NCBI GenBank assembly: GCA_903857825.1
Contig: CAIOGI010000001.1
Location: 40,698-104,697, forward strand
Reading direction: 5' to 3'
Length of the DNA: 64,000 nt
DNA from: Candidatus Tayloriibacteriota bacterium
Lineage (GTDB): Bacteria; Patescibacteriota; Minisyncoccia; Phycocordibacterales; PALSA-1337
The translations under genes were made by a program, and so were the position numbers. Positions 1,137 through 51,592 of the stretch are shown one piece after another (position 1 is the first letter of the stretch; each line of letters begins with the position of its first letter). The notes beneath the pieces were generated by a model. It was not told the origin of the DNA. It saw nothing but the letters and a program-made list of their open reading frames with translations, and searched no databases.

Positions 1137-1153
1137 AGTCTTTATTTATACTA

Positions 1154-1942
1154 TTAATCAAGATTGAGTTCGATGGGACAATGATCTGAACCAATTACCG
1201 CGTTGAGAATATTGGCTTTTTTTACTTTTTGCACTAGGGCAGGGGAGATGAAAAAATAGTCAATTCTCCAACCAACATTTCTTTCTCTTGCGAAGGTTTT
1301 CATGTCCCACCATGTGTATGCGCCTACTTTTGTTGGATTTTGTTGTCTAAATATATCAAGGTATCCAGCTTGAATTACTTGATCAATCCACTCTCTTTCA
1401 ATAGGAAGGAATCCAGTATGATTCGAATTCTCCTTTGGTCGTGCCAAATCAATTTCATTATGTGCCGTGTTTACATCTCCACAGAATATCACTTCGTATC
1501 CTTTTTTTCTTTGCGCATTTATATATTTTAGGAATTGATCATAAAACCCCAGTTTATACTCTAATCGTTTAGGATCCTCAGCACCATTGGGAAAGTAGCA
1601 ATTAATCAGTACATACTTTACACCCATTAAATTCTTGTTTTCGTAGAATAGAGCTAAAAAGCGACCCTCTTTGTCATATTCCTCAATTCCTAGACCATAT
1701 TCTACCTTATCCGACTTCTCTTTAGCGTAAACAGCGACACCACTATAGCCCTTCTTTTCCTTAGAATGATCAAAATATGAATAATAGCCTAGTGGATTTC
1801 GTACACCTTCCTCTAATTGCTCTGGGTGCACCTTGGTCTCTTGATAACACATAAAGTCAGGAGACTTCTGCAAAAACCAATCAAATCCACCCTTTTTCAC
1901 ATTGGCGCGCAAGCCGTTTACGTTCCATGAGATTATGTTCAT
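1154..1942 (-). CDS. xthA: Exodeoxyribonuclease III / AP endonuclease (Xth family)
   Basis: MNIISWNVNGLRA, QETK, WWD..., and the C-terminal SDHCPIEL motif are hallmarks of EEP-fold ExoIII. Confidence 0.9.
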   Translation of the reverse strand: MNIISWNVNGLRANVKKGGFDWFLQKSPDFMCYQETKVHPEQLEEGVRNPLGYYSYFDHSKEKKGYSGVAVYAKEKSDKVEYGLGIEEYDKEGRFLALFYENKNLMGVKYVLINCYFPNGAEDPKRLEYKLGFYDQFLKYINAQRKKGYEVIFCGDVNTAHNEIDLARPKENSNHTGFLPIEREWIDQVIQAGYLDIFRQQNPTKVGAYTWWDMKTFARERNVGWRIDYFFISPALVQKVKKANILNAVIGSDHCPIELNLD

Positions 1943-1977
1943 GGGATAATTATAGCAGAAATTTTAAAAGCTACCCC

Positions 1978-4176
1978 TTATTCACTCTTCCTATGAAATT
2001 TTTTGTGGATTTTCTTTAATTCTGTATCAGTAACATGTGTATAAATCTGAGTTGTATTGATATTGGCATGGCCAAGAAGCATTTGCACTGAGCGCAGATC
2101 TGCACCATTTCTCAACAGGTCTGTCGCGAAGGAATTATGTGAAATAAAACCATCAGTAATAAAGTTTGAGTATTTATTAATGGTAAAATCAAATACCTCG
2201 GTTTTACCTTTAATATTTTCTATTTTTTTTATCTTTAACCACCGAATATGCGAATTCAGTTTAAGTAAATTCTCAAGTATATCAATCGATCCATCTTTTA
2301 AGCCATTTCCTCGCAAAACAGTTATGATTTTCATTAATAGATTAGCAGACAAACAGATATTTTTATATCTGGTTAGATTTTTTATATTACATTTATTTTG
2401 TATTTCATATACCAATCCCTTATTTTGCAACAATATTGGATATAATTTCCTTAGTATTTGCTGACATGGTATTTTTTCATCCTCAATAATTTCGGGATTT
2501 AATATCGTCTTTTGTTTAAGGGTTTGAATTAAAGACTTAAAGTTTCTCTGGTTTTTAAAGGTGGTTATATGAAGCACATAAATAGTATTGTCAATTATTT
2601 TTCCTTGTGGGAGCTTAACTTTTCTATCTCTTTTTAATAAAATAGAGTCAATATTAAGTATTAAAAATAAAGATTGAACATCTTTTAACAGGTCTTTGCT
2701 TGTTGAAAATACTTTTATAGTTCCATTATTGCCTTCCGCATCATAATATCCAGCAAGAAATGCGCTTATCTCTTCCTTGCTCGCCTTAAACAGACTCTCG
2801 GGAACACGCCTATATTTTGAGTATTGTGTAATACCAAGTTTTCTCAGTTTTCTTAATAACTTAACATCATAAATATATAAAGAATGTGATTTGCTTTCTT
2901 TATTTGGACCAATTATTGGCTTCCTACCAATTATTTTTTCTGCCAAATTTGCATAATATTGAATATGCTTTATGTCCTTATCATTGATAATAATTCCTCG
3001 CCTTCTTTCACTTAAGGTACCATCTCCTAAAATATATCCCGTCAACCTCCAAAAATCCTTGCCCTCACCATCTTTTTTGTTAAAAGAAAAATCTACATGT
3101 TTTATGCCTGCAACATAGTCTCCAACAGATAGATCCTGCATTTGTCTTTCAACAATCCCATTTGTATTTACTGTAAAAAATGTATGATATGGTGTAGCTA
3201 TAATTTCTCTGCCATCTGCCCACATGCTTGATAGATTCTCTGTCGAATGCTTTTTTTTGGCAATAACCTTACCTTTCATTATTTGGCCATTATTAAGGTC
3301 TAGACTCATTACCATGCTTTGCTTGGAATTATTCAATTTATTTGCAGAAAAAATCCCAGAGCTTGTAATAATCCTTGTGTCTGAGTGTAAGCAGTGGCGA
3401 ATAACGTGTGGCGTTACTTTCTTGGAAATACCACTATTTATGGCATACTGCTTGACTATTCTCTCAACTGTTCTTCTATCTAGTCTTAGCGAATCCTTTT
3501 TCTGAGCCATTTTCTCATTCTTCTTGCCTGTAATTTGCACAAAAAGTGCATCGTCCATATCATCTCTTTTATCTAAATATTTTTGTACAGCGTTTCTTGC
3601 ATCATCTGAAATAAATACCACACGAACCTTCTCACCCTTTCCTCTGACAGACATTTCATCTAATTTTAAGTTTATATCTCTAGGGAGGGCACATAACTCC
3701 GACACACGAAGACCTGTTGAAAAAAGTAGCTCTAGCATGGCTTTATCTCTCAAGCCCTTCAAATTGCTTGTGTCTGGGGCGTTAAGCAAACGAACAAGTT
3801 CTTCAATAGTTATCAGATCTAATGATCTTTCTGGTACTTTTGCTAGCTCTATTCTATCTGGAGATAGAGAAGTAATGCTCTGTCTAGCCAGATATTTGAG
3901 AAAGGCACGCAATGCTATCAAATAGTAGTTCTGTGTACGTTTCTTTAGGGTTGTTGGGGCCAGTCCTTTCTCATTTCTAGCCTCTTGTCTGTTAAGCCAA
4001 ATACGGAAATCGCGTACAACATTGTCAGTAATACCTTTTGGATCTTTTATCTTCGTATAATCTAAAAAACGGCTCAGGTAGCGATCATAATTACGCACAG
4101 TATTCAGGCTTCTACCTTTTTCTATTTCAGTATATTGAAGAAATTCGGTTTTTAGTGAAAAAAGATTTTGCGACAT
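1978..4176 (-). CDS. XerC/XerD-family tyrosine recombinase whose catalytic C-terminal domain is interrupted by a roughly 420-aa intein
   Basis: The N-extein has the typical Xer N-terminal region ([13 protein letters not shown]...) and [13 protein letters not shown] (the Arg I region). The sequence ...TPHVIRH is then split from [34 protein letters not shown], which carries the catalytic Tyr. Confidence 0.85.
2134..3393 (-). mobile_element. Intein (Cys1 ... His-Asn, with a +1 Ser) carrying a LAGLIDADG homing endonuclease, inserted directly after the catalytic RH of the recombinase
   Basis: It starts [13 protein letters not shown] and has block B TPYHT. Two LAGLIDADG-type motifs are present ([12 protein letters not shown] and [11 protein letters not shown]). 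It ends FISHN followed by S. Extein coordinates were worked out from residue counts. Confidence 0.8.
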
Positions 4177-4216
4177 GATTTAAGTATACAATGCCAATCT
4201 TTTTCACACCCCCTTG

Positions 4217-4246
4217 ACAAAAAACTAGGGTATGCTATGATATCAC
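4217..4246 (+). promoter_or_regulatory. Near-consensus sigma70-type promoter (TTGACA-N17-TATGAT) pointing towards rpsO
   Basis: Sequence ccTTGACAaaaaactagggtatgcTATGATat. Confidence 0.5.
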
Positions 4247-4460
4247 CAACGTGTCTGAGCTTACTGCTATTGTTTATACCTATTGGCAAGGTAGGCAATG
4301 GCAATCGAACACCGCACAAACAATGGCCCCACGTGCTAAATGCGAGAGCACAGGCCACAACAATGAAAGGGAATCGCCATGATCAGAGGCCCGCCCCAAC
4401 TAGTTCGCCCCGTATCCCAATTTCGCACAGCTATGTGGAAAGAAGAGGATGCGGGGCATT
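4247..4460 (+). ncRNA. Candidate structured non-coding RNA or a long structured rpsO leader. The segment is GC-rich and sits downstream of the consensus promoter. Its class is unassigned.
   Basis: About 210 nt, visibly GC-rich in an AT-rich genome. It has no RBS or plausible ORF. A complementary pair cgccccgtatcc / ggatgcggggc is present. A second promoter-like TTGCAA-N17-TAGTAT lies just upstream of rpsO. Confidence 0.3.
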
Positions 4461-4502
4461 TAATTTGCAAATTTTATACATTCATGCTAGTATATCCCAA
4501 TC

Positions 4503-4772
4503 ATGTTAACAACAAGACAGAAGACAAATATCATAAAAAACGTAGCAATACACGATAAAGATACTGGCTCTCCAGAGGTTCAAATTTCAATATTAACAAA
4601 GAGAATCGAAGAATTAGCTGGTCACTTGAAAAAGCATAAGAAAGACAATCACTCAAGACGAGGACTTCTAGCCATGGTAGCCGATAGACAGACTCACATG
4701 AACTATTTAAAGAAGAAGAGCACTAAGCGTTATAACAGTATCGCGAAGAAACTAGATATAAAGGCAAAGTAA
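4503..4772 (+). CDS. rpsO: 30S ribosomal protein S15
   Basis: GSPEVQISILTKRIEELAGHLKKHKKDNHSRRGLLAMV matches the S15 signature. Confidence 0.95.
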   Translation: MLTTRQKTNIIKNVAIHDKDTGSPEVQISILTKRIEELAGHLKKHKKDNHSRRGLLAMVADRQTHMNYLKKKSTKRYNSIAKKLDIKAK

Positions 4773-4865
4773 AATTGGACTCGCTTGCTTGCGCTCGGAA
4801 GCTCCTCTTTTTTTCACAAGTTCAAAAAAGTAGGACTTCCTCACCGCGTCGAGTCTCAATTTTAC
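4769..4865. repeat. Palindromic intergenic repeat element, copy A. Its termini are gtaaaattggactcg ... cgagtctcaattttac, and it overlaps the rpsO stop.
   Basis: The same element recurs at 36090-36188, with variants at 44676-44702 and 45180-45317. Confidence 0.65.
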
Positions 4866-4977
4866 ATACCCTAATCATTATATGAGTCCAATTTTGTTAT
4901 TAATGGTATACTTAGTTCAGTAAGTATTTTAATAATAGTAGGTTAAATTTTAATAATAAATAAGTAAATAATTTTAT

Positions 4978-5613
4978 ATGTCAGTAATTAAACATAAAGA
5001 ACAGCGTGTTGGAGTTTTTATAGATACTCAAAACATTTATCATAGTGCGAAAAATCTATATCATTCAAAGGTCAATTTTGGTCAAATAGTAAAAGATGCG
5101 GTAGGGGAGAGATCTCTTATCCGTGCAGTCGCTTATGTCATAACAACAGAGGCAGGTGACGAGAAAGCATTTTTTGAAGCACTCACAAAAATGGGCATAG
5201 AAACTAAAACAAAGGATCTTCAGATATTCGGTAGTGGAGCAAAGAAGGCAGACTGGGATGTGGGACTTGCAATAGATGCTGTGAAGCTAGCACCAAAACT
5301 AGATGCAGTCATTCTAGTAACGGGCGATGGAGACTTCGTACCACTTGTAGAATATTTGCAGACAAATGAGGGGTGTCAGGTAGAAGTTGTTTCCTTTGGT
5401 AAATCAACATCAACAAAACTACGTGAAGTAGTAGATGATTTCTTTGACCTTGATGAAAGTGTTTCTAAATATTTAATCGGTCATCAAAATAGATTTCAAG
5501 GATCAGGAAAGGGTAAGGCACCTATTCGCCAAGGCTTCAAGAAGCGAGGACCAAAAGATGCGACAGTTGGAAATGTTGCAGATGAAATAGCGGATTTGAG
5601 TGGGCAGGAGTAA
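4978..5613 (+). CDS. NYN/LabA-like domain protein (a predicted RNase-like PIN-related fold)
   Basis: VFIDTQNIY, DVGLAIDA and ILVTGDGDFVPLV are the LabA/NYN acidic motifs. Confidence 0.7.
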   Translation: MSVIKHKEQRVGVFIDTQNIYHSAKNLYHSKVNFGQIVKDAVGERSLIRAVAYVITTEAGDEKAFFEALTKMGIETKTKDLQIFGSGAKKADWDVGLAIDAVKLAPKLDAVILVTGDGDFVPLVEYLQTNEGCQVEVVSFGKSTSTKLREVVDDFFDLDESVSKYLIGHQNRFQGSGKGKAPIRQGFKKRGPKDATVGNVADEIADLSGQE

Positions 5614-5634
5614 AAATTTTACACTATGAAACAA

Positions 5635-5669
5635 AAGACCTTGTGGCGGAAGTTCCCAAGGTCTTTTTG
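5635..5669 (+). terminator. Rho-independent terminator hairpin (aagaccttg...caaggtctt followed by a T-run)
   Basis: A perfect 9-bp stem followed by TTTTT. Confidence 0.6.
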
Positions 5670-5736
5670 ATTGATATAATTATGGATATTAAAAACTATT
5701 TTATAAATAATTATTAACTTTAATCTAAATATAAAT

Positions 5737-6561
5737 ATGAATGAAATAAAGGATATTGCATTGTTTGAGGGAAAGGAGGTGAGAAAAGTTTGGCATAATG
5801 AAAAATGGTACTTTTGTGTTAATGACATTGTGCTTGTTCTTACAGAAACCGTTGATCCAGTTGATTATATAAAGAAAATTAGACAACGAGATGAAGAACT
5901 TGGCAAAGGGTGGGGACAAATTGTCACCCCCCTTTCAATGCAGACAAGAGGAGGAAAACAGATGATCAATTGTGCAAACTTAGAAGGTATATTCAGAATA
6001 ATTCAATCTATTCCGTCACCTAAGGCAGAACCTATTAGGTTATGGCTCGCTCGTGTAGGCACCGAAAGACTTGAAGAAATTCAAGACCCTGAACTCGCTA
6101 TGGATCGGGCAAAAGCTATTTATGAAAGAAAAGGATATCCGAAGGACTGGATAGACAAGAGAATGAGGGGAATAAATGTTCGTCATAGCCTAACAGACGA
6201 ATGGAAGAACAGAGGAGTAAAGAAGGGTATTGAATTTGCTATTCTTACTGACGAAATATATAAAGGCACTTTTGACATGACTGCACAGGAGTATAAAAAG
6301 CATAAGTCATTAAATAAGGAGAATAATCTCCGTGATCATATGAATGACATCGAACTCATATTGACTATGCTTGGAGAGGCTACAACAACGAAGTTAACGC
6401 AAGATAGAGATTCACGTGAATTTGATAAGTTACAAAAAGATGCGGAAGAAGGTGGGGAAGTGGCAGGAAAAACTAGGAAGGACATTGAAAGTAGGACGAA
6501 GAAGACGGTAATAGCTAAAGAAAATTATTTGCCGAGAACAAGAAAAAATCTAAACTCATAG
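5737..6561 (+). CDS. DinD-family (DNA-damage-inducible protein D) / Bro-N domain protein
   Basis: It has a Bro-N-like N-terminus (KVWHNEKWYFCVNDIV...). The central FAILTDEIYKGTFDMTAQEYKKHKSL...DHMNDIELIL aligns with E. coli DinD FAIFQNRGYQGLYGG...DHMGSTELAANL. Confidence 0.6.
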   Translation: MNEIKDIALFEGKEVRKVWHNEKWYFCVNDIVLVLTETVDPVDYIKKIRQRDEELGKGWGQIVTPLSMQTRGGKQMINCANLEGIFRIIQSIPSPKAEPIRLWLARVGTERLEEIQDPELAMDRAKAIYERKGYPKDWIDKRMRGINVRHSLTDEWKNRGVKKGIEFAILTDEIYKGTFDMTAQEYKKHKSLNKENNLRDHMNDIELILTMLGEATTTKLTQDRDSREFDKLQKDAEEGGEVAGKTRKDIESRTKKTVIAKENYLPRTRKNLNS

Positions 6562-6778
6562 TTGATAGTTTACTGCCAACTATCAACCATAACATACAAA
6601 ATATACGACTAGAATATAAACTAGACTAATAATTAGACCAATAACTAGACTAATAATAGACTAATCTATAGTTATTAAATGGCTATATTTATAACTATAT
6701 ATGGATTTAGCTCAAAGTTATACCTTAAAAGCTAGTAGAAAAATTGATAGAAAAGTTAACCCATGATATACTCATATT

Positions 6779-8002
6779 GTGAACAATGAAACTATAGCAA
6801 AAAACAACTCAAATCCATTCAAAAAAGGCTTTCTATCTCATTTCAGCCTTGATTTTGACTTGTTTAAAATACAGGATTCAGATATACAGAGATTAGATAA
6901 TAAACTAAATTCCTTCGAAAAGATATTTCTGGACCCAAATATAGAAAAGACCCTAATAAGCAAGAATGAGTTACTTGCCTCTTTTGCAATATCAAAAGCA
7001 GAAAATTCTCAGCTCACATTAGAAGAAGCGGAAGATATCTATAAATTTGTTATAGAAAATAAAGATTTTGATTTTATAAGTAAAAAAATATCAAGTGGTA
7101 AAAAACTAGAAAAAAAAGACTATGAAAAGTTAGAATTCTTTAATATTGCTAGCACCTTTAGAGCTTTAAATGCAAATCCTTTTATGATTCAAGAACTGGA
7201 TGATAAATTGATTAGGAAAATCCATTTTGATATAACAAAAGGGCTAGATATTTTTGCTAAATATCTACCAGAATTTACTCTATATAAATCAGGAAACTGG
7301 CGTGATAATAATGAAATTCGTGTTGGAAAATATACTCCATCAGATTTCAAAGATATTCCAAATTCTATTTCTGATCTTATTTCATGGTTTAAAGATAATC
7401 AGTCCATAACAAATGTAGCTATATTTCATACTGCTCTATATGCAATACACCCTTTCAACAATGGGAATAAAAGAGTTTGTAGAATAATTGAGCATATTTT
7501 ATTAAAAATAATAGGGCTTAATAAGAATAATCTTTATAGTAATTCGTATTTTTATCATAAAGAAAAAACTAGATATTACAAGTATCTTTTAAGTTCACTA
7601 GAGAGAAGGAATCTTAATATTTTCTCATCTTTTATACTAGAGTCTATCGTCTTCTCTATTTTGGGAGTGATCAAAACTAGTCTAGAAATAAAAAGGCAAC
7701 AATACATTGCCCAGTCTGAACTTGATAAGGCAGTACAAAAAGCAATTAAAGGGCTTATTAAAAGAAGGGAATTGCAATTTAAAAACTTCTATAAAATAGT
7801 TAAAAACCAAATTTCCAAGCAAACATTCGTAAATTATCTAGAAAAAGCAGTAAGTGCTGGAATTCTTATTAAAAGAGATGCAGGCAAAGCAACATATTAT
7901 AGGTTAAATATAGAAACGGATGAGGAAAAGTTATTAGCGGAGTTACTTGAGGATATAAAAGGGAAGGTTGGGGTTATAGATGAGGATTTGAGGTTGGTGT
8001 AG
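6779..8002 (+). CDS. Fic/Doc-family protein with a non-canonical Fic motif (HPFNNGNKRVCR) and a C-terminal winged-helix-like region. The track start is a GTG.
   Basis: The HPFxxGNxR core is present. It deviates from canonical HPFx(D/E)GNGRxxR by having N at the D/E position and K in place of the second G. Confidence 0.65.
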   Translation: MNNETIAKNNSNPFKKGFLSHFSLDFDLFKIQDSDIQRLDNKLNSFEKIFLDPNIEKTLISKNELLASFAISKAENSQLTLEEAEDIYKFVIENKDFDFISKKISSGKKLEKKDYEKLEFFNIASTFRALNANPFMIQELDDKLIRKIHFDITKGLDIFAKYLPEFTLYKSGNWRDNNEIRVGKYTPSDFKDIPNSISDLISWFKDNQSITNVAIFHTALYAIHPFNNGNKRVCRIIEHILLKIIGLNKNNLYSNSYFYHKEKTRYYKYLLSSLERRNLNIFSSFILESIVFSILGVIKTSLEIKRQQYIAQSELDKAVQKAIKGLIKRRELQFKNFYKIVKNQISKQTFVNYLEKAVSAGILIKRDAGKATYYRLNIETDEEKLLAELLEDIKGKVGVIDEDLRLV

Positions 8003-8022
8003 AAATGTGATGTAAAAGAAAA

Positions 8023-8040
8023 CCGTACATCTCTGTACGG
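8023..8040. terminator. Bidirectional hairpin (ccgtaca-tctc-tgtacgg) between convergent genes
   Basis: A perfect 7-bp stem with A- and T-rich flanks. Confidence 0.45.
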
Positions 8041-8085
8041 CCGTTGTGGGTAATGCCCCGCTGAAACATTACCTTGATTTGCGTG

Positions 8086-8616
8086 TTATTGTGCGGCACG
8101 CTTTGCTTCATCTAGGTGTTGCCTGAGTTGCCCAAGAAACCTTCTTGAGTTCACAGTGATACCTTGTTTTTCTTCCTCCTCAAATAGCTTGATAAATTTT
8201 GTCAGAATCTCAACCGCAATTTTTGCGTCAAGAAATTTCTGGCAAAACCACCAAGCCATGGTCGGTCTGTAGTAGGCGAGTTCACGTGCAGCCTGCTTAA
8301 GATCTTTCTCGTTCATCCGAAGCATTCTCGTCGTCTGAATTACCCCCTCACCATATCCGGCCTTAGCGTATTCGGTCCAAGCTGACTCCAACACAATTTT
8401 CCTGTGGATTCTGGATAGTCCCCTAACCAGACTGGTAACGCCTTGTGTATCCCAAGTTGCCTTATCGGTCTTTGGGTGAATGATGTAAGAAGGGAAGTTT
8501 GTGGTATTCATGTACTTTGTCTTTCTTTTCTGGTGTTCAATGGCACACCTACTTAAAGCCGTATTTTGTTGTAAAGAACTAACTCTATGAATCTGCGACA
8601 TCAGTCGTAGACTCAA
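8086..8616 (-). CDS. Hypothetical protein with visibly higher GC than its neighbours
   Basis: A long ORF with coherent codon usage. I recognise no motifs in it. Confidence 0.4.
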   Translation of the reverse strand: MSLRLMSQIHRVSSLQQNTALSRCAIEHQKRKTKYMNTTNFPSYIIHPKTDKATWDTQGVTSLVRGLSRIHRKIVLESAWTEYAKAGYGEGVIQTTRMLRMNEKDLKQAARELAYYRPTMAWWFCQKFLDAKIAVEILTKFIKLFEEEEKQGITVNSRRFLGQLRQHLDEAKRAAQ

Positions 8617-8695
8617 TGAAGTCGAGGATTTTCTTAGGATCCTCGATGTTGAAAGTTTTAGGCGTTAGCCACGGTTACTTCACCGAGTGGAGTTA

Positions 8696-9070
8696 CTACT
8701 GTGCCTTATGTACCTTAACCATTTGGATGATTAAATGCGCCACCTCCTTCAACGGGAAAGGGTGTTCGTACTTTCCCAAGAGCCGGTAAGTGCAGTAAGC
8801 ATCTATTGCCTTGTGGTCACTGGTAGTCACAAGTGTAATGTCTTTCGGGATAAGTCTTGCGACTTCCGCTCCTGAAAACATATGCATCTGATGATCCAGC
8901 AGGACGAGCTGGCAACCATTGATTTTCTTCAACACCTGATTAATTGATGTGTTCATGGAAACCACGATTGACACCGCCTCAAATCCCGCTACCTGCACAG
9001 CTTGGCTGAGGTCTTTTACGAAGTATTGGTCGTCATCAACCACCGCTATTTTTGTTGTTCTATTTTTCAT
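8696..9070 (-). CDS. Stand-alone response-regulator receiver (CheY-like REC) domain protein
   Basis: IAVVDDD, and LVLLDHQM with the phospho-acceptor Asp. It is about 124 aa and has no output domain. Confidence 0.7.
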   Translation of the reverse strand: MKNRTTKIAVVDDDQYFVKDLSQAVQVAGFEAVSIVVSMNTSINQVLKKINGCQLVLLDHQMHMFSGAEVARLIPKDITLVTTSDHKAIDAYCTYRLLGKYEHPFPLKEVAHLIIQMVKVHKAQ

Positions 9071-9256
9071 AATCTGTTTGTTTTAATGTTCTTATCTGAC
9101 AATAGTATATCATCTCTGTCAATTCTTGTCTAAATTACGTCATTAATTATAGATGTATCTACTGAGTAGATGGCTAGGTTACTATATACATTGAGTATAG
9201 TTAAATTGTTGTCAGTATTATTGACATATGTATGCTATATTTGATATACTGATCCT

Positions 9257-9991
9257 ATGGAAAATATGTCTCAAATATTAGAGAAAATAGGACTTTCAAG
9301 CAAAGAATCGGCTATCTATCTGGCCTTACTCAAATATAACAATGCAACCGTACAGGATATTGCAAATGAAGCAGGAATTAAACGCCCAACCACATATCTA
9401 ATATTAGATGAGCTTAGAAAAAAGGGTCTGGTTCTAAAGATCCCCCATGCAAAGAGAGCGATATTTCAAGCCAGGGCACCAGATGAGGTATATGAACAGG
9501 TATCAAACAATTTGAATAATTTTGAAAAGATATTACCTAAACTTCGATCAATAAATCCATCTAGAAACACTGTAAAAACTTTATATTTCGAAGGAGCAGA
9601 AGGTTTAAAGGAATCATTAAACTACAGGCTCGCAGAAATGAAAGACAAGACGCTTGTAGGCTTTTGGGCAAAAGATAGTGGTTTACCAAAAAAGATTCTC
9701 GAATTATTTGATAATTGGAATAAAAATCTATTAAAATACAATATTACTATGGGAGGGGCAACACCAGATCATGAATCAACTAGGAAATATCTACAACAAT
9801 ATCCACAATTTTATAAATACCTTAAATTAGTACCCGAAAAAGACTACTCTTCTGATGTATCAATAGACGTAAGCGATGATTTTGTAAGAATAATAGATGG
9901 ACATGAATTAAAAGCAGTTATTATAGAAGATAAAAGGGTTGCTGATGCTGTAAAACAGATATTTGCACTTGCTTCTAAAAATATTCAATAG
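9257..9991 (+). CDS. TrmB-family HTH transcriptional regulator
   Basis: The N-terminus ILEKIGLSSKESAIYLALLKYNNATVQDIANEAGIKRPTTYLILDELRKKGLV matches the TrmB wHTH. Confidence 0.65.
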   Translation: MENMSQILEKIGLSSKESAIYLALLKYNNATVQDIANEAGIKRPTTYLILDELRKKGLVLKIPHAKRAIFQARAPDEVYEQVSNNLNNFEKILPKLRSINPSRNTVKTLYFEGAEGLKESLNYRLAEMKDKTLVGFWAKDSGLPKKILELFDNWNKNLLKYNITMGGATPDHESTRKYLQQYPQFYKYLKLVPEKDYSSDVSIDVSDDFVRIIDGHELKAVIIEDKRVADAVKQIFALASKNIQ

Positions 9992-10016
9992 TATAGTCAA
10001 AATTATAATTAAAATT

Positions 10017-10064
10017 CTATAGTTAACCCATGAAATCTAAGCAATACACCCTTGAGGTCGGTCC
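10017..10064 (+). repeat. Duplicated pnp 5' end (a pseudo-start encoding MKSKQYTLEVGPLL*). This is direct-repeat copy 1 of the 37-bp core acccatgaaatctaaRcaatacacccttgaggtcggt.
   Basis: It is identical to 12460-12496 apart from one mismatch. Confidence 0.75.
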
Positions 10065-10068
10065 TCTC

Positions 10069-10833
10069 TTATAGGTTTTCCTTTACAAAATCAACAGCAT
10101 ATCTAAACCTTTCTCCTAGTTTTTCTCTTTCACCAATAGCCACAAACGGCTTCATATCTGCAATAAATTCTTTTTCACTAAATTTATCTAATCTCTTATA
10201 AATTTCTTCTTTATTCTTCAAATCCAATCCGTAATATTTTAATTTCTCTTCTATCATAACACCATTAAAGACGGCCCCGAAACCAAGTAAGTAGGCCAAA
10301 TCATACAAATCCCTCCCTTTCTCTCTGGTCATGATTGCTCTTATTTTCTCAGAGAAAATTTCATTCATTGATAGATGATGAATATACGAATTAAAGATGA
10401 TAGGGAAATCACTTTTTATTGTAGATTTTGAAGGCTCTATTGGCTTTTCTCTAAAAGAAAAATCAAATTTTATAAAAACTTTATAATCTATAAAATCTGG
10501 CTTAACTGTAAGTAGATAGGTCTTACCAGAAATAGCCTCTCTTTCTTTAAATGAAAATCCTGAATTTTCTTTACAAATTAAAACAAAAAAATCTTTTATA
10601 AAGCCTTCAAACTCTTTATCTTGCATATCTACAGTAAAATCAAGATCTTCTGAAAATCTTGGGGCTCCAAAAATAATATGCACGGCTGTTCCTCCTTTAA
10701 AATAAACTTTTTCACAACCTTTCATAGAATATAATTTATCAAGACACAATAACTGTACATACTCTCGCAATACAATAGTCTCATTTGTCTTAAATTTCTT
10801 TGTTAGTTCATGTATTTGATCCTTTGTTATCAT
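10069..10833 (-). CDS. AbiEii/AbiGii-family nucleotidyltransferase toxin (type IV toxin-antitoxin / abortive infection)
   Basis: KGGTAVHIIFGAPRFSEDLDFTV is the AbiEii signature. Confidence 0.75.
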   Translation of the reverse strand: MITKDQIHELTKKFKTNETIVLREYVQLLCLDKLYSMKGCEKVYFKGGTAVHIIFGAPRFSEDLDFTVDMQDKEFEGFIKDFFVLICKENSGFSFKEREAISGKTYLLTVKPDFIDYKVFIKFDFSFREKPIEPSKSTIKSDFPIIFNSYIHHLSMNEIFSEKIRAIMTREKGRDLYDLAYLLGFGAVFNGVMIEEKLKYYGLDLKNKEEIYKRLDKFSEKEFIADMKPFVAIGEREKLGERFRYAVDFVKENL

Positions 10834-11450
10834 AGTATTTTATTAGTTTTTAATATTTCAATGATCTTATCTTTTACTATTCCTTTTTTTATATTATTTA
10901 CATATTCATCGAGTCTTTTCTTATCTATATTTGATAAATCATATTCGCTCATATCTATCTGTCTCTTTCCGTTTATAGACAAATATATCTGATCCAATAA
11001 TGCTTTTTCAGGAAGTGCAATGAGAAATCCATCCTTTTTCTCATAACCCCAGAATAAATCCTTATTAATATGAGAATAACTGTAGATATTGCCATCAATT
11101 TCTTTAATTTTTGTCTTTTTAACTGTTGCGCTAGTTATCTCAAAAGGGAATTGGGAAAGAATACCATGAAAATTCAAAGCTGATTCAAAAGAGATATATG
11201 ATGGTTCGTATAGGAAGTTTGCAATAAGAAAATTACTTGGCTTTTTACTTGGGATTATGTATTTACCCATTTCAAGTCTTTTTAAAATACCATTCATTAC
11301 AAGGCTATTTATCAAGTCGAAGGGGGCTTGATGTCTACTAATACCCAAAAGGTTTCGCAAGGTTTCACTGGGAATAATGCCAATATCTGATTGTAATATT
11401 GCTTCAGTTGCCTTTACTTTATTAAAGTTTTGATTATTCGATGATTCCAT
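10830..11450 (-). CDS. AbiEi-like antitoxin / transcriptional regulator (wHTH). Its stop overlaps the AbiEii start by 4 nt.
   Basis: It sits upstream of AbiEii and is translationally coupled to it (ATGA overlap). The N-terminal region ...LRNLLGISRHQAPFDLINSLVMNGILKRLEMGKY is HTH-like. Confidence 0.55.
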   Translation of the reverse strand: MESSNNQNFNKVKATEAILQSDIGIIPSETLRNLLGISRHQAPFDLINSLVMNGILKRLEMGKYIIPSKKPSNFLIANFLYEPSYISFESALNFHGILSQFPFEITSATVKKTKIKEIDGNIYSYSHINKDLFWGYEKKDGFLIALPEKALLDQIYLSINGKRQIDMSEYDLSNIDKKRLDEYVNNIKKGIVKDKIIEILKTNKIL

Positions 11451-11678
11451 ACACTACGTACTATACCAATTCTGTGGAATCATTACAAGTGGTGAATGTG
11501 GATAACTATATGAAAAGCGCAAAATACCTATATTAAATGTCATTTATATATGTTGCAAAATAAAGGTATTCTGATGATTTCGCATTTAAGTAATGTATAC
11601 TTGACTTAAAAGTGAGATTTAAATTAAGTATACTTAACTAAAATAAGGAAACTATACTACTTCTGATATAATATCCTC

Positions 11679-12424
11679 ATGAACAACGAATTTAAAAAAA
11701 AAACGCACAGCAAATACTATTAGAAAGGGCAGAAATTTCTTTACAAAAAGCAAAAGAACTTATACTCGAGCATATTCCAAATGAAGAAATACAAGCTATA
11801 TATGTAAAAGGGAGCTATATACAAGGGGAACTTAAAGAAGACAGTGATATTGACATAGTAGTGATTCTTAAAACAAAAAAATATTTACCTGATGTCTATA
11901 AACTAACAGATGATTTTGGTAATACTACAGATATGCCTTTTCAAGCTGTAGCATATACTATGGATGAATTGCAAACTGGAGTACTAGCCCAAAATAGAAC
12001 AAAATCGCCTACCACTATTAGTATCTTTGTTAAACAACTAGATCAACTTCCACTCATATATGGCCTAAAACCAGAAGGAAAACTCTATACTCGTACAGAT
12101 ATAAAAGATTTAACCGCTCAAATAGGGAACTTTAGAAAAATGTTTCTGCCAGATTTCGAGAAAGGGAACTTTCACTTCAAATCCCTAGTCAAACAAGTAT
12201 TATGGTTAGTAGAAAGGGAACAAAGGGCGCTGGGTATATTACCAGAATATTCTTGGCAACGCCTTGCGAATTCTATAAAAGATCCGGATCATATTGTCCA
12301 TAATACTTTAAAATATAGAAGGGGTGGAGAAGTTTCAGATAAAGAAAAGGATGAGTATATGAATAAATTAAATGAGTATTTGGAGATGTTGGGAGATAAA
12401 TATAAAAAGACAACAAATATTTAG
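11679..12424 (+). pseudogene. Pol-beta-superfamily nucleotidyltransferase gene (GS...DxD motif KGSYIQGELKEDSDIDIVVIL) interrupted by a frameshift at an A10 homopolymer (11694-11703). The track ORF is the GTG-initiated remnant 11861-12424.
   Basis: ATG at 11679 reads MNNEFKKK and then hits a stop. A -1 shift or an 11th A restores one continuous roughly 248-aa ORF, MNNEFKKKNAQQILLERAEISLQ...KGSYIQGELKEDSDIDIVVIL... Confidence 0.6.
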
Positions 12425-12459
12425 AAGCTATACCAATACCCCACATTCTGCTAAACTAT

Positions 12460-12496
12460 ACCCATGAAATCTAAACAATACACCCTTGAGGTCGGT
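12460..12496 (+). repeat. Direct-repeat copy 2 (the genuine pnp start region)
   Basis: See the feature at 10017-10064. Confidence 0.75.
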
Positions 12497-14551
12497 GGTA
12501 AGACCCTCACAGCAGAATTTAATGATTTAGCAGAGCAAGCTCACGGTTCTGTAATGATGCGATACGACAACACTGTCGTGCTCGCTACAACAGTTATTAG
12601 CAAAGAAGAAAAAAAGGGGGATTTCTTTCCACTCACTGTTGATTATGAAGAAAAGTTTTATGCAGCTGGGAAAATTTCTGGTGGTAAATATAATAAAAGA
12701 GAGGGAAGACCAAGTGATGAAGCCATTCTTTCTGGAAGAATAGTGGATAGGACTATTCGTCCGCTTTTTGATCAACACATTCGTAATGAAGTGCAGGTCA
12801 TACTTACTGTACTTGCTTCTGGCGAAGGAGACCTACATATTCTCGGAGTAATTGGCGCATCACTTGCACTAGGTACATCAAAAATCCCTTGGAACGGTCC
12901 AGCTTCATGTATTCATGATGTAAATCCAAACTACGACCTTGTCGCTTGTGGTAAAGATGGACTAATAAATATGATTGAAGTTGCTGGCAAGGAGGTTGAT
13001 GAAGAAATCGTAAACAAGGCTTTAGTGAATGCTAGTGTAGAAATTGAAAAAATTCAGTCATGGCAAGAAGAAATAATAAAAGAAATCGGAAAGACAAAAA
13101 TGATAATTCCGAAGCCAGAACTTACTGCAGGCACAGAGGAGCTCTTTAATGTTGAAATTACAAACAAACTAGGTGAATACATTTTTGGATCAATTGGTAA
13201 AGATAGAATGGGGGAAATAGCTGACATTTGGACAAAATTATTTATAGAAAAATTCCCTGAGGGGAATCTAGGGCTGGCACAGGAATTTCTTGATGAAAAA
13301 ATAAATGACTTAATACACGCAGAAGCAATAGAAAATGAAAAGAGACCGGACGGTAGAAAGATGGACGAAATAAGACCATTATTTGCAAAGGTTGGTGGAA
13401 TCTCACCGATTCTGCATGGAACAGGGACATTTTATAGAGGAGCAACACACGTTCTTTCAGTACTTACACTTGGCGGGCCTGGGGATGTACAAGAAATAGA
13501 TGGAATGGAAATTACTGAAGCAAAGAGATTTATGCATCATTACAATTTCCCTCCATTCTCAACAGGCGAGACAGGCAGAGTCGGCGGAATGAATCGCAGA
13601 ATGATCGGCCACGGAGCTCTCGCAGAGAAGGCCCTACTACCTATTATTCCAGCAAAAGAACTATTCCCTTACACAATACGCATAGTGTCAGAAGCCTTTT
13701 CATCAAATGGTTCTACATCGATGGGATCTGTTTGCGGATCAACATTAGCACTTATGGATGGAGGGGTTCCTATAAAGGCACCAGTGGCAGGTATTGCATC
13801 TGGACTTATGATGCGAGAAGCGAAGGCTGGCGTAATGGGTAAGCTTTTTGGAAAGAAAAATTATGAATATAAAGTTCTAACAGATATACAAGGACCAGAA
13901 GATCATCATGGTGATATGGACTTCAAGGTTGCAGGTACAAGACAAGGCATCACAGCAATACAAATGGATGTAAAAGTTAATGGTATTCCATTAGAAATTT
14001 TGAAAGAAGCATTCGAAAAGGCAAAATTAGCTCGTTTTCAAATCTTGGACTTGATAGAAAAAGAAATCACCAAGCCAAGAGAAAAGATATCACCAAACGC
14101 TCCTGAGATAGTTATGACAGCGGTCAAGCAAGATCAGATCGGCTTGGTTATAGGTACAGGAGGAAAGACAATCAAGGAAATAAAAGAGAAAACTGGTGTA
14201 GATGACATCACAATAGAAGACGATGGAACAATATTCATCACAGGAAAAAATGGTACCGCTCAAAAGGCAAAAGAAATTATATACAATATGACACGTGAGT
14301 ACAAAGCAGGGGAGAGATTTGAAGGAGAAGTTACAAAGATCACAGACTTCGGTGCATTCGTGAGGATTGCCGGTTCAACAGAGGGACTTGTGCATGTTTC
14401 AGAAATAGCAACATTCCGAGTCGATAGAGTTTCTGATTATCTAAAAGAAGGAATGAAAGTACCAGTAATCATTCGTGAAGTAGATGAAAGAGGAAGATTG
14501 AGTCTATCTATAAAACAAGTTGATCCAAACTTTATAAAGAAAAAAGCTTAG
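12464..14551 (+). CDS. pnp: Polynucleotide phosphorylase / polyribonucleotide nucleotidyltransferase
   Basis: Two RNase PH domains, then KH and S1 domains (…GLVIGTGGKTIKEI…, …GERFEGEVTKITDFGAFV…). Confidence 0.95.
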   Translation: MKSKQYTLEVGGKTLTAEFNDLAEQAHGSVMMRYDNTVVLATTVISKEEKKGDFFPLTVDYEEKFYAAGKISGGKYNKREGRPSDEAILSGRIVDRTIRPLFDQHIRNEVQVILTVLASGEGDLHILGVIGASLALGTSKIPWNGPASCIHDVNPNYDLVACGKDGLINMIEVAGKEVDEEIVNKALVNASVEIEKIQSWQEEIIKEIGKTKMIIPKPELTAGTEELFNVEITNKLGEYIFGSIGKDRMGEIADIWTKLFIEKFPEGNLGLAQEFLDEKINDLIHAEAIENEKRPDGRKMDEIRPLFAKVGGISPILHGTGTFYRGATHVLSVLTLGGPGDVQEIDGMEITEAKRFMHHYNFPPFSTGETGRVGGMNRRMIGHGALAEKALLPIIPAKELFPYTIRIVSEAFSSNGSTSMGSVCGSTLALMDGGVPIKAPVAGIASGLMMREAKAGVMGKLFGKKNYEYKVLTDIQGPEDHHGDMDFKVAGTRQGITAIQMDVKVNGIPLEILKEAFEKAKLARFQILDLIEKEITKPREKISPNAPEIVMTAVKQDQIGLVIGTGGKTIKEIKEKTGVDDITIEDDGTIFITGKNGTAQKAKEIIYNMTREYKAGERFEGEVTKITDFGAFVRIAGSTEGLVHVSEIATFRVDRVSDYLKEGMKVPVIIREVDERGRLSLSIKQVDPNFIKKKA

Positions 14552-14623
14552 AAAGACTTACGCTCAAATACATATTCAGTAAAATAGCATAGAGCGAATA
14601 TTCTTATGTTATAATAAATATCG

Positions 14624-16360
14624 ATGGATGAAGTAAAAACTAATCAGAAAAATGCTTTAGGAAAACAGGTATCTGGTAATATAATACCAGATGAACATCC
14701 TCTGCACATGCTCAACAATCAATCTGACCCAATAAGAAGACGCCGCCCACTATCTCAACAAGCTATCAGAACATACGAAAGCGATATGGCGGATTTGCTT
14801 GGGAAAAAAGAGACAACAGTTGCAACAATGGCAATTGCCGAGCAAAGAAGAAAGGAAGAAAAAACAACAATTGTGCGTCAGCCTCTAATAGAAAAAGTAA
14901 TTGTTCAGGAAAAAAGGGAAGAAATGAATACACATAAGCCTATTCAAAAAAGAGATGTGTTAGAAAATTCTAGAGTATATACACCACCAACAAAGATCAA
15001 GGTTGAATCACCAGCAATCATTCCAGAAAAACAAAATAAAGTAGAAGAGCATGCACTAGACAAATATAATGAAGATACAGCGCTGAGCAATGAGCCTGTT
15101 ATTGAAACCAAGCAAGCACCAATTTTATCTAATCTTATAAGCGCCGAAGACTTTACTAACCCAGAACCCGCAAGAGAGACGCCCATTCTAAAAATGGATA
15201 CTTTTGTTGAGTCGATGGATAAGCCTATTATTAGAGAAAATGATGTGCAACCGATTAAAGAAGATGTTTCAATCAAGCCAGATCAAGCAAATATAGAGAA
15301 ACTTTTCACGCCAGAACCAATAGGAGAAGTTGCCGTTCTTGAACCTGAACCAATTGTCGAGCCTGTAGTTGAACAAGAATCTCCCATCATCCCTGAAACG
15401 ACTTACAGGCCAGCACCTGCTCCATTCACTTTTCCAAAGTATACACCTCCAGTACAGGTTAAAAATTCTAGTTTACAAATTGAGGACAAAGAAGATGCAG
15501 TACCTGAGTTCATTGATAACATTGCCTCAAAAAAGGAGGCCTCTGTTTTTGTTCCAAAGAAAACATTTACCACAATAACCGATGAGTCCGCAGGTACTGG
15601 AAATTACAGTAGAAAGATTTTTATGGTTATAGTAAGCATAATACTTATAGTCGGCGGTGTGGGAGCTGGATACTATTTATACCTAAAAAGCCCTCTTGCG
15701 AAACCAACTGTTGTGCCGATTAGTACAAGCAAGGTTCCAAGTATAATTAAACCAGAAACTCAAAAGATAGTTCCTATAGGAAACCTGAAGGGTGTCTCTT
15801 TGGAAGAAAAGATTAGAAGTGTTGTTGTTTCTGATGCTGTAGCTGCAGGAGTCTTGAATGAGATTGTATTAACACAGACCACAGGTTCAAGCACAATAAG
15901 GGTAACTGCTTTAAATTTTATAAAGACAATTGGATACCAGACTCCAGAGATATTCAAAAGATCACTTATGAACATATGGATGCTTGGTGCATATGGATCA
16001 GATGAAGGAAATGCACCCTTTATAATATTCAAAACTGATTTCTTCCAGAATTCATATGCAGGAATGCTAGATTGGGAGAAAAATATGGTGGACGATTTAG
16101 CTATTTTATTAAATTTTGAAGAAAAAATAAAAAATCAAAACAACACAGGAACCAGCACAGTTAGAGGATACTTGGCTGTTAGAGGTAGGTTTGAAGACAA
16201 AATTATTCTTAATCGTGATGTAAGAAAGTTTACAAATGAAAATGGTGTATCTTTACTTGTATATTCTTTTATAGACAAAGATACCTTAGTAATCACAACA
16301 TCCGAAAATGTCTTACGAAGTATAATACAAAAGCTTGAAAAGCAAACGCAGATAAGGTAA
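14624..16360 (+). CDS. Hypothetical single-pass membrane protein. The cytoplasmic half is Pro/Glu-rich and a transmembrane segment lies near residues 333-355.
   Basis: The hydrophobic stretch IFMVIVSIILIVGGVGAGYYLYL is present. No recognisable catalytic motif. Confidence 0.45.
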   Translation: MDEVKTNQKNALGKQVSGNIIPDEHPLHMLNNQSDPIRRRRPLSQQAIRTYESDMADLLGKKETTVATMAIAEQRRKEEKTTIVRQPLIEKVIVQEKREEMNTHKPIQKRDVLENSRVYTPPTKIKVESPAIIPEKQNKVEEHALDKYNEDTALSNEPVIETKQAPILSNLISAEDFTNPEPARETPILKMDTFVESMDKPIIRENDVQPIKEDVSIKPDQANIEKLFTPEPIGEVAVLEPEPIVEPVVEQESPIIPETTYRPAPAPFTFPKYTPPVQVKNSSLQIEDKEDAVPEFIDNIASKKEASVFVPKKTFTTITDESAGTGNYSRKIFMVIVSIILIVGGVGAGYYLYLKSPLAKPTVVPISTSKVPSIIKPETQKIVPIGNLKGVSLEEKIRSVVVSDAVAAGVLNEIVLTQTTGSSTIRVTALNFIKTIGYQTPEIFKRSLMNIWMLGAYGSDEGNAPFIIFKTDFFQNSYAGMLDWEKNMVDDLAILLNFEEKIKNQNNTGTSTVRGYLAVRGRFEDKIILNRDVRKFTNENGVSLLVYSFIDKDTLVITTSENVLRSIIQKLEKQTQIR

Positions 16361-36090: not shown

Positions 36091-36188
36091 TAAAATTGGA
36101 CTCGCTTGCTTGCGCTCGGGAGCACTTTATTTTTATACGCAAGCTAGTAAAAATAAAGTCTCCCTCACCGCGTCGAGTCCAATTTTAC
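36090..36188. repeat. Palindromic intergenic repeat element, copy B. It exactly fills the gap between convergent stop codons.
   Basis: Its termini gtaaaattggactcgcttgcttgcgctcgg ... cctcaccgcgtcgagtccaattttac are near-identical to copy A. Confidence 0.7.
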
Positions 36189-44675: not shown

Positions 44676-44702
44676 GTAAAATTGAAGCGAGTCCAATTTT
44701 AC
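44676..44702. repeat. Short copy C of the palindromic repeat (gtaaaattgaagcgagtccaattttac), overlapping the ruvC stop
   Basis: It shares the terminal motifs of copies A and B without the internal region. Confidence 0.5.
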
Positions 44703-50933: not shown

Positions 50934-50997
50934 GTTTTTAATTTAAAAAAGTTAAATATTGTATTTATTATAGCGTATAAGGTAAATTTGACTGCTA

Positions 50998-51025
50998 TTG
51001 ACTTTACCGCTGACTGTGATATAAT
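50998..51025 (+). promoter_or_regulatory. Consensus promoter 1 (TTGACT-N16-TGaTATAAT, an extended -10), followed by leader hairpin agccagaa-ttgt-tctggct at 51036-51054
   Basis: It is near-identical to the promoter and leader at 51511-51570. Confidence 0.6.
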
Positions 51026-51072
51026 ACTACCGTAAAGCCAGAATTGTTCTGGCTCGGTTACGGAATGATCAT

Positions 51073-51399: not shown

Positions 51400-51417
51400 C
51401 TAAGACCACCCCACCAA

Positions 51418-51458
51418 GCGGCTCGAATCTCACAGGAGAGGCGAGCCGTTATTTTTTA
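51418..51458 (+). terminator. Rho-independent terminator (gcggctcg...cgagccg followed by TTATTTTTT)
   Basis: A GC stem followed by a T-run. Confidence 0.6.
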
Positions 51459-51510
51459 TATTTTCGATTAGGTAGTAATTGATTAGCAGGTTTAATATCT
51501 TTTAATACTA

Positions 51511-51538: not shown

Positions 51539-51592
51539 ACTAGTGTGAAGCTGGAATATGTTGTTCCAGCCAGATGACGGAAAGTTCTTCCT

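Follow-up and report, generated by a model that had tools for sequence, protein, structure and literature searches.

We report that the interval between rpsO and pnp in a 64,000-nt stretch of contig CAIOGI010000001.1 (hereafter the window, on which all coordinates are based) contains an accessory region of 6.8 kb at positions 5614 to 12439. The host is placed in the Paceibacteria (Parcubacteria) within the Patescibacteria. The region is absent from the sister genome L082, and the corresponding slot is empty in three further relatives (L004, L096, and L092). It is a real and ordinary strain-specific accessory island. It is a mosaic, probably built in at least three steps, and we consider it likely that it represents a lineage-specific accessory region assembled stepwise in one plastic spot of a fixed xer-rpsO-NYN-pnp neighbourhood. 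A preliminary description of this DNA, made from the letters of the sequence, had taken all of positions 4773 to 12463 for a phage-defence or toxin island. The genes that it listed were recovered, coordinates included, by open reading frame (ORF) listing and by Pfam and PADLOC searches, and the block is indeed lineage specific, compositionally mixed, and rich in toxin- and defence-type genes. However, the foreign part is confined to the 6.8 kb given above, and it is a mosaic of at least three pieces rather than one island.

Using a polynucleotide phosphorylase (PNPase) query, we recovered 80 species-representative loci (L001 to L080) and located S15 and the NYN protein in each; the best PNPase matches among species representatives were 59 to 77% identical. 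In the window, the left landmark is rpsO, which encodes ribosomal protein S15 (4503 to 4772, + strand; Pfam PF00312, 4.5e-30) and lies outside the island; the right landmark is pnp, encoding PNPase (12464 to 14551, +). The NYN/LabA-type nuclease gene (4978 to 5613, +; Pfam NYN, 1.2e-35) was found between these two genes in 71 of the 71 related Paceibacteria species that have rpsO upstream of pnp. Ancestrally, the genes run rpsO-NYN-pnp, with a variable slot that extends from the NYN stop codon to pnp. With NYN a permanent part of this locus, the premise that rpsO and pnp are normally adjacent fails in this lineage. The comparison also corrects an annotation habit: NYN is here a core, syntenic partner of rpsO and pnp and not defence cargo. 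As in rpsO-pnp loci of the Escherichia coli/Bacillus type, rpsO precedes pnp on the same strand and is followed by a strong hairpin. In contrast to those loci, the NYN nuclease gene is always interposed in the Paceibacteria, and pnp in the window has an apparent extended -10 promoter of its own, 6 to 7 nt before the ATG and of leaderless type. The constancy of rpsO-NYN-pnp suggests a fixed unit and a possible functional tie of the NYN nuclease to S15/PNPase RNA metabolism.

A comparison of the spacing of the locus showed that close relatives lack this block. In the sister genome (L082/L083; PNPase 97% and S15 100% identical), the slot holds different cargo, with the order NYN, Peripla_BP_6 (-), TrmB (+), and pnp. 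In L089/L090 (PNPase 79%), two genes of unknown function, a pnp remnant, and an AbiE cassette precede pnp. The slot is empty in L004 (PNPase 77%; 13 bp), L096 (73%; ∼50 bp), and L092 (60%; 7 bp), the last of which carries an AbiE cassette elsewhere. L096 was the single locus returned by a metagenome scan with the pnp-start sequence. In an alignment with L082, the DNA of the window is similar precisely as far as the NYN stop codon (5613) and then again from 12440 onward, 24 nt ahead of the pnp ATG; between these two points, a 46-nt pnp remnant was the sole similarity found. The NYN stop codon is also where DNA similarity to L089 and L096 ends. The divergent Peripla_BP_6 (-)/TrmB (+) pair occurs twice in L082 (1 to 1680 and 11160 to 13250), with one copy inside the NYN-pnp slot, and at another position in L092 (11662 to 13595); the pair is a further mobile module of this neighbourhood.

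The arrangement in the window is reproducible. By exact-protein look-up, the strain was found, with an identical arrangement, in assemblies made independently from five or more samples. L081 matched window positions 1 to 14771 over 14,772 nt at 99.993% identity, L085 showed the full gene order of the window, and L084 and L086 each contained part of the region.

Across the wider set of species, the distance from NYN to pnp is <400 bp in 39 species, 400 to 900 bp in 8, and 0.9 to 4.2 kb in 24. At 6.85 kb, the distance in the window is the largest of all those compared. Slot cargo in the 24 other species includes DUF475/TerC (four times), DUF805, PRPP synthase, LexA, PIF1 helicase, NUDIX, SET domain, and polysaccharide lyase genes. 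A defence-candidate match in the slot was found in only one of them (L067, with a 47% identical homolog of the Bro-N/PDC-S13 gene described below). This mostly non-defence cargo indicates a general plastic slot rather than a dedicated defence hotspot.

The pieces of the island are a Bro-N/PDC-S13 gene together with a Fic gene that bears a Doc-type motif; a block of 44 to 45% guanine-plus-cytosine (GC) content, comprising a near-orphan gene and a REC-like gene, with a TrmB gene; the AbiE cassette; and a Pol-beta-type nucleotidyltransferase gene. The GC content of the window is 35.7%, and deviations were scored against the mean of 1-kb windows. By gene, the near-orphan (44.1%) and REC-like (45.1%) genes lie above this mean (z, +2.3 to +2.6), and Fic (28.8%) and AbiE (29.3%) lie below it (z, -1.8 to -1.9). 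This heterogeneous composition points to a mosaic. The stretch from 8.0 to 9.1 kb (44% GC) falls within the top 2.4% of 1-kb windows; its high GC content, noted earlier, is thus genuine, but the stretch is situated in the middle of the island and not in its left portion. Paralogs of the island genes were not found elsewhere within the window.

A fossil junction is preserved inside the island. Positions 9989 to 10062 (+) hold a copy of the sequence that runs from the NYN-pnp spacer through the pnp promoter to nt 33 of the pnp gene, with a remnant ATG at 10030. Of this copy, 10017 to 10062 forms a 46-nt direct repeat, 89% identical, with the live pnp start (12451 to 12496, +; -13 to +33 of pnp). 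The fossil as a whole is 82% identical to the native spacer and pnp start of the empty-slot locus L096, and bases -13 to -1 of the remnant are identical to the native sequence upstream of pnp in L082. Taken together, these two comparisons identify the left copy as the fossil of the original spacer, promoter, and pnp start. The duplication of the pnp 5' end had been proposed to mark the right end of the island. The duplication is real, but the remnant directly follows TrmB and, with the live copy, brackets only the right-hand 2.4 kb (AbiE and nucleotidyltransferase). No pnp-start duplication was detected in the 80 related species. In L089, the pnp remnant is decayed and its ATG is lost. The window and L089 have their junction at precisely the same point, pnp +33, a few bases from the AbiEii stop codon, and the remnants carry the pnp variants of their own genome at +6, +9, and +18 (three of three L089-type in the L089 copies and three of three window-type in the window copies). 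Such own-genome variants fit either independent insertions at one preferred site or a single spread followed by gene conversion between the short copies.

Islands and prophages that target tRNA or transfer-messenger RNA genes insert at the end of the gene and carry a replacement copy of that end. The right-hand part of the island resembles them in that a direct repeat of the target gene end flanks the insert, the gene is intact, and one copy is a nonfunctional remnant. It differs in that the target is the 5' end and promoter of a protein-coding gene, the insert is 2.4 kb, and there is no integrase.

A promoter-like site in the remnant (TAGTCA-18-TATAGT, 9994 to 10030) points at the 3' end of the convergent abiEii gene and could drive antisense transcription into the toxin gene. 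Extended -10 boxes (TGnTAnnnT) were observed 6 to 8 nt before the starts of TrmB (9221 to 9257), Fic (6744 to 6779), the nucleotidyltransferase (11662 to 11681), pnp (12445 to 12466), and Exo_endo_phos (1940 to 1975, -), and likewise before the pnp remnant, so that the remnant may still fire towards the abiEii 3' end. The distribution of these boxes suggests that leaderless mRNAs may be common in this organism.

In the ancestral state, NYN was followed by an ∼50-nt spacer and pnp. The left cargo (Bro-N/PDC-S13, Fic, near-orphan and REC, and TrmB; 5614 to 9988) occupies the stretch from the NYN stop codon to the old spacer, and the right cargo (AbiEii-AbiEi and nucleotidyltransferase; 10063 to 12450) lies inside the old pnp start, with the second copy of -13 to +33 restoring an intact pnp. 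The left block may itself be of mixed origin, the near-orphan and REC-like genes having perhaps come from higher-GC Patescibacteria or their small replicons. Cargo would have arrived through DNA uptake followed by recombination between the conserved flanks NYN and pnp, and occasionally through insertion at the promoter and 5' end of pnp.

The AbiE cassette (10063 to 11516, -) is a horizontally mobile unit of 1.45 kb that comprises AbiEii, AbiEi, and a promoter/operator region. AbiEii (10069 to 10833, -), of the DUF1814 nucleotidyltransferase toxin family, matched PF08843 at 1.9e-28 (100.4 bits versus a cutoff of 22.5) and PADLOC AbiEii at 2.7e-32. AbiEi (10830 to 11450, -), of the antitoxin/autorepressor family, overlaps abiEii by 4 nt and is assigned to its family by the PADLOC AbiEi profile (1.3e-34); it is divergent, scoring 34 bits against a cutoff of 150 for NCBIfam TAA_AbiEi and giving no Pfam match. 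The identification of an AbiEi/AbiEii pair, and of a TrmB-like regulator beside it, stands. The bicistronic layout with an upstream, overlapping abiEi also occurs in L089, L092, and L097 to L100. An inverted repeat, ATGATTCCA-N25-TGGAATCAT (11441 to 11483), spans the abiEi start codon and the -10 box and is the presumed AbiEi operator. Its arms are 9 bp long (11441 to 11449 and 11475 to 11483) and accompany a promoter-like site at 11488 to 11460. In L089, the palindrome is kept by a change on both arms (ATGGTTCCA/TGGAACCAT).

The defining features of AbiE systems and the definitions of motifs I/II (hG[GS]...R...DhD), III (K...R), and IV (+DxxD) were taken from the literature (PMC3985639). In the translation of AbiEii, motifs I to IV are intact and read G47G48, R59, D63-L-D65, KIRAIMTR, and RDLYD. 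Like the AbiE systems of Streptococcus agalactiae and Lactococcus (Dy et al. 2014, PMC3985639), the cassette consists of two genes with a 4-nt overlap, a PF08843 toxin with motifs I to IV, an AbiEi-family partner upstream, and, as a candidate operator, an inverted repeat across the promoter. In contrast to those systems, motifs I and II lie 2 residues closer together than in S. agalactiae, the arms measure 9 bp rather than 11 to 23 bp, the host is a Patescibacterium, and the system is known here from sequence alone. By analogy, AbiEii would be a GTP-dependent nucleotidyltransferase toxin held in check by AbiEi, and AbiEi would repress its own promoter via the inverted repeat. The pair may provide abortive-infection-type protection against phage, stabilise the island, or both.

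The two closest AbiEii homologs (89% identical in L089 and 86% in L092) lie in the same chromosomal neighbourhood of related genomes. The order in L089/L090 is rpsO, NYN, two unknown genes, pnp remnant, AbiEii, AbiEi, and pnp, with no nucleotidyltransferase. In L092/L093, the cassette lies between the xer stop codon and the Exo_endo_phos start. The DNA shared with L089 covers window positions 9993 to 11507 (85% identity) and that shared with L092 covers 10069 to 11516 (80%), and the flanking housekeeping DNA is 74 to 82% identical in L089 and 65 to 75% in L092. At the protein level, the window and L092 share 86% identity for AbiEii and 81% for AbiEi, compared with 60% for PNPase, 69% for Xer, 73% for S15, and 79% for NYN. 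An AbiE pair that is far better conserved than PNPase and that occupies two different intergenic slots argues strongly for horizontal spread of the cassette. More distant AbiEii homologs (52 to 58% identical) are found in polysaccharide-synthesis loci and have no link to pnp.

At the left end of the island, the Bro-N domain protein (5737 to 6561, +; Pfam Bro-N, 2.1e-10) belongs to the PADLOC candidate family PDC-S13 (5.8e-110), and the profile match is full length, with residues 1 to 269 aligned to profile positions 1 to 271 of 286. The earlier DinD/Bro-N assignment is sound for the Bro-N part, but the DinD-like C-terminal match is weak (31 bits versus a cutoff of 242). Homologs include the 47% identical protein in the same slot of L067 and proteins with 48% identity on small phage-labelled contigs. 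A literature search on PDC-S13 found no mention of the family, which is a defence candidate. The protein is predicted to be a DNA-binding candidate defence factor.

The adjacent gene (6779 to 8002, +) encodes a Fic-fold protein of 407 aa (Pfam Fic, 6.2e-13; PADLOC SoFic, 1.9e-27, covering residues 45 to 374) with a Doc-type motif, HPFNNGNKRVCR, at residue 224. The motif had been called degenerate, which it is not. According to published consensus sequences, Doc proteins carry HxFx(D/N)(A/G)NKR and AMPylating Fic proteins carry HxFx(D/E)GNGR (PMC4177925); in a regular-expression search, HPFNNGNKR fitted the former and not the latter. A second such search found no inhibitory [ST]xxxE[GN] motif in the protein. 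No Phd-type antitoxin gene was found upstream, where the ORFs of at least 20 aa in the 217-bp spacer encode just 21 and 26 aa. The protein scored 16 bits against a cutoff of 38.65 for NCBIfam DOC_P1 and 39 bits against a cutoff of 550 for ProtAdlyltaseSoFic, which places it outside both Doc proper and the SoFic equivalog. It shares the Fic fold and active-site motif with Doc of the phage P1 Phd-Doc system but is three times longer and is not preceded by a Phd-like antitoxin gene. It resembles SoFic-type Fic proteins in overall length and in the C-terminal region that matches the PADLOC SoFic profile, but it has NGNKR in place of the GNGR of AMPylating SoFic and lacks the inhibitory helix motif. 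Judging from the Lys-containing Doc motif alone, it is more likely to be a protein kinase than an AMPylase. Two tandem 24-nt repeats (6610 to 6657; TAGAATATAAACTAGACTAATAAT / TAGACCAATAACTAGACTAATAAT) that precede the Fic promoter may form a regulator-binding site. Within the Fic gene, contigs of three independent assemblies end in a stretch of 27 to 28% GC (7014 to 7376): L084 ends at 7376, L086 starts at ∼7014, and the third starts at ∼7067. Low coverage or strain heterogeneity could account for these ends.

The high-GC middle of the island begins with a near-orphan gene (8086 to 8601/8616, -; 44.1% GC) encoding an all-helical protein of 141 to 171 aa with no family match. A word-indexed search with this protein returned only itself, and an exhaustive HMMER search among 1.84 billion representatives found five weak and distant homologs. 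Structure prediction gave a confident seven-helix model with no informative structural neighbour. Next to it lies a stand-alone REC-like gene (8696 to 9070, -), previously described as an orphan REC domain. The gene is present, but its Pfam Response_reg match of 26.4 bits is below the gathering threshold of 30.2 and covers the first 67 of 111 positions of the PF00072 profile. The DD, D, T, and K positions expected of such a domain are recognisable in the protein, and two homologs (P0123 and P0124) have a precomputed PF00072 match; the protein is probably a divergent REC domain. Three homolog clusters were found in 5.8 billion proteins. One homolog (70% identical) is encoded on L095 (1 to 4560), a 4.5-kb contig of 43% GC that also carries a rolling-circle Rep gene (PF23343) and an unrelated NYN gene. 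This contig is possibly a small plasmid or phage-like replicon from a Patescibacterium; its ends showed no overlap of the kind expected for a circular molecule. Another homolog (59% identical) lies in L094, a Patescibacteria genome of 44% GC, with a divergently transcribed TrmB gene one gene removed. The near-orphan gene was compared with the neighbour of the REC homolog in L094, and the two were not similar. Together, these observations suggest that the near-orphan and REC-like genes may have originated in higher-GC relatives or their small replicons.

Divergent from the REC-like gene is that of a TrmB-family regulator (9257 to 9991, +; Pfam TrmB, 1.4e-15), with a GC content of 33% and an 11/12 promoter match at 9221 to 9250. 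Its identity is 57% over 159 codons to the TrmB of L094 (tblastx) and 27% to the TrmB found ahead of pnp in L082. The REC-like and TrmB proteins are both putative regulators.

The rightmost cargo gene encodes a Pol-beta-type nucleotidyltransferase (11679 to 12424, +) and, as read from three-frame translations, is frameshifted by an A10 run at 11694 to 11703. This confirms the earlier call of a frameshifted gene for the window. In the DNA of three other assemblies of the same strain (L081, L085, and L086), however, the run is A11 and the gene is intact. One additional assembly has the gene split in its calls in the same way, and in another the call is of intact length. The intact form is 248 aa long (Pfam Polbeta, 2.5e-09; NTP_transf_2, 7.6e-07), and its similarity to aminoglycoside nucleotidyltransferases and to MntA is weak. 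L089 lacks the gene, its AbiE cassette directly adjoining pnp, and the segment from ∼11507 to 12457, which includes the nucleotidyltransferase and its flanks, has either been inserted additionally in the window or been deleted from L089.

With respect to function, AbiE is the only experimentally established abortive-infection/toxin-antitoxin (TA) family in the island. The Fic and PDC-S13 matches are to candidate or related families, and the REC-like, TrmB, and near-orphan genes are regulatory or unknown. Like a classical integrative genomic island, the region is absent from the same site in close relatives and deviates in composition. An integrase of its own and direct repeats at both ends of the island were not found, the sole direct repeat being that which brackets 10063 to 12450. 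A prophage or integrative and conjugative element remnant was considered and rejected, given that 5614 to 12439 contains no structural, replication, conjugation, or integrase genes. Variable slots between core genes, filled with accessory or defence genes that are exchanged by flanking homologous recombination, are a general concept. The slot described here conforms to it in its fixed NYN and pnp flanks, its mosaic cargo, its empty state in some relatives, and the wholly different cargo of sisters whose PNPases are 97% identical. It departs from variable defence-gene slots in that it mostly holds non-defence genes in the 24 other species.

Several observations weigh against stepwise assembly from horizontally acquired pieces. 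No recombinase, transposase, or terminal inverted repeats were found in the island, and the mechanism of insertion is one that we infer; the only tyrosine recombinase in the vicinity is the chromosomal Xer, which is conserved in most relatives and lies outside the island. No empty-site or excised form was seen among the 14 contigs that carry the exact TrmB protein. The divergence of AbiE between the window and L089 (AbiEii 89% and AbiEi 86% identical) resembles that of host proteins (79 to 98%) and is compatible with vertical descent and loss in L082; gain and differential loss are not fully separable with this sampling. The case for joint arrival of TrmB and REC, which draws on L094, is weak given their GC contents of 33% and 45%. 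Finally, all gene functions were assigned by homology.

How the cargo came to lie in the slot can be explained in other ways. Acquisition as a unit, whereby a single 7.7-kb phage-defence or toxin island split an adjacent rpsO-pnp pair and left the pnp duplicate as its right end, appears highly improbable to us. The presence of AbiE, a SoFic-like Fic, and PDC-S13, the direct repeat of the pnp start, and the lack of these genes in close relatives would be expected from such an event. However, it is contradicted by the core status of NYN in all 71 species, by a repeat that encloses 10063 to 12450 only, and by a fossil spacer in mid-island. Neither does the cargo travel together, in that L089 has AbiE and the remnant with other left cargo and no nucleotidyltransferase and L092 has AbiE alone and elsewhere, and at least three GC classes, from 29% to 45%, are represented. 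We also regard as improbable a history in which the cargo was ancestral to the genus and was differentially lost from L082, L096, L004, and L092. Such a history would accommodate the AbiE-at-pnp arrangement and remnant shared with L089, with its host-like divergence, as well as the recurrence of TrmB-type regulators near the locus in many relatives. It would also require a precise deletion for each of the clean empty junctions in three relatives, and it sits poorly with the intact ancestral spacer beside the remnant, with the conservation of AbiE far above that of housekeeping proteins in the comparison with L092, with genes of 44 to 45% GC unlike a host of 36% GC, and with the finding of Bro-N, Fic, near-orphan, and REC solely in same-strain contigs. 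Foreign DNA joined by mis-assembly or binning error can practically be dismissed: although three assemblies break inside Fic and a single-base homopolymer difference separates assemblies, identical full-length arrangements were obtained in independent assemblies of different samples (L081 and L085, with L084 and L086 in part), and breaks in a 27 to 28% GC stretch are more simply due to low coverage.

The remaining alternative concerns the right cargo. In this scenario, the AbiE cassette would be a site-directed insertion element that uses the pnp promoter and 5' end, entered the window and L089 lineages independently, made or brought the -13 to +33 copy, and relied on a recombinase in trans, e.g., Xer. 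The identical +33 junction next to the AbiEii stop codon in both genomes favours it, as do remnants that match their own pnp at +6, +9, and +18, as expected of duplications postdating the lineage split, and the lack of the cassette in the sister L082. The window also presents an attL/attR-like pattern, in which the left part of the remnant is of ancestral type and that of the live copy is not. Nevertheless, these clues come from two genomes and a handful of informative bases, and gene conversion between the 46-nt copies would produce the same pattern. In L092, the cassette lies elsewhere, without a pnp fragment and in another orientation relative to the downstream gene, and other cassettes (52 to 58% identical) reside in unrelated contexts. 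Neither a recombinase gene nor an excised form or empty site has been seen, the latter among the 14 TrmB contigs. On balance, we judge site-directed insertion to be unlikely. A broader version seems rather doubtful: that the 1.45-kb cassette is a recombinase-less mobile cassette that repeatedly targets the pnp promoter/5' end and promoter-proximal spots beside xer in Paceibacteria, regenerating the gene start via an ∼46-nt repeat with a host enzyme such as Xer acting in trans. If true, it would be a previously undescribed route for TA and defence cassettes in ultra-small genomes without classical mobile-element machinery.

A mosaic accessory region in such a slot is a feature of a kind already known and is unsurprising in kind; the one thread that may be new is that the AbiE cassette possibly prefers the pnp start as its site. 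Patescibacteria have very small genomes with few recognised defence systems and few recognised mobile elements, and the locus offers a clean, datable case of accessory-gene shuffling among them. Three features are key: one plastic slot within a fixed neighbourhood, a complete swap of cargo between sisters, and a preserved fossil junction. With filled slots, empty slots, and alternative cargo, it is ready comparison material for gene flow.

Other features of the window lie outside the island. The palindromic repeat reported after rpsO was confirmed as a hairpin of ∼97 nt (4769 to 4865; free energy [dG], -35.8; z, -6.2) that starts within the rpsO stop codon and lies outside the island. It recurs at 36089 to 36190, between two convergent genes, and in partial form at 44685 to 44702; the outer arms are near-identical, and the inner stem is variable. 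The copy after rpsO is not conserved in L082. The element is probably a terminator-type repeat belonging to a small repeat family in this genome, and the family looks like repetitive extragenic palindromic (REP)-like or bidirectional-terminator repeats.

Upstream of rpsO, the gene for the Xer-type tyrosine recombinase (1978 to 4176, -) contains a LAGLIDADG intein, which immediately follows the HVIRH active-site motif and brings the product to 732 aa. Orthologous recombinases of L082, L089, and L092 measure 313 to 315 aa and have no intein. The xer-rpsO intergenic region (4177 to 4502; 326 bp, 44.8% GC) has an 11/12 match to a sigma-70-type promoter at 4214 to 4241 and a fold z-score of -2.4, and it is not conserved in L082 save for its last 38 nt. 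This region might serve as an extended leader of rpsO or encode a small RNA. An Rfam search of 4100 to 5000 at E values up to 1 gave no match around rpsO, and at the gathering threshold, Rfam detected one tRNA and nothing else in the whole window. A replication origin or terminus at the locus was considered on account of a cumulative GC skew minimum near 5 kb, and was dropped because only 4.5 kb of the window extends to the left. The highest-GC patch of the window (50900 to 52000, up to 52.7%) contains two ORFs (51073 to 51399 and 51593 to 52003) with signal-peptide- or lipoprotein-like N termini and is probably another foreign insertion.

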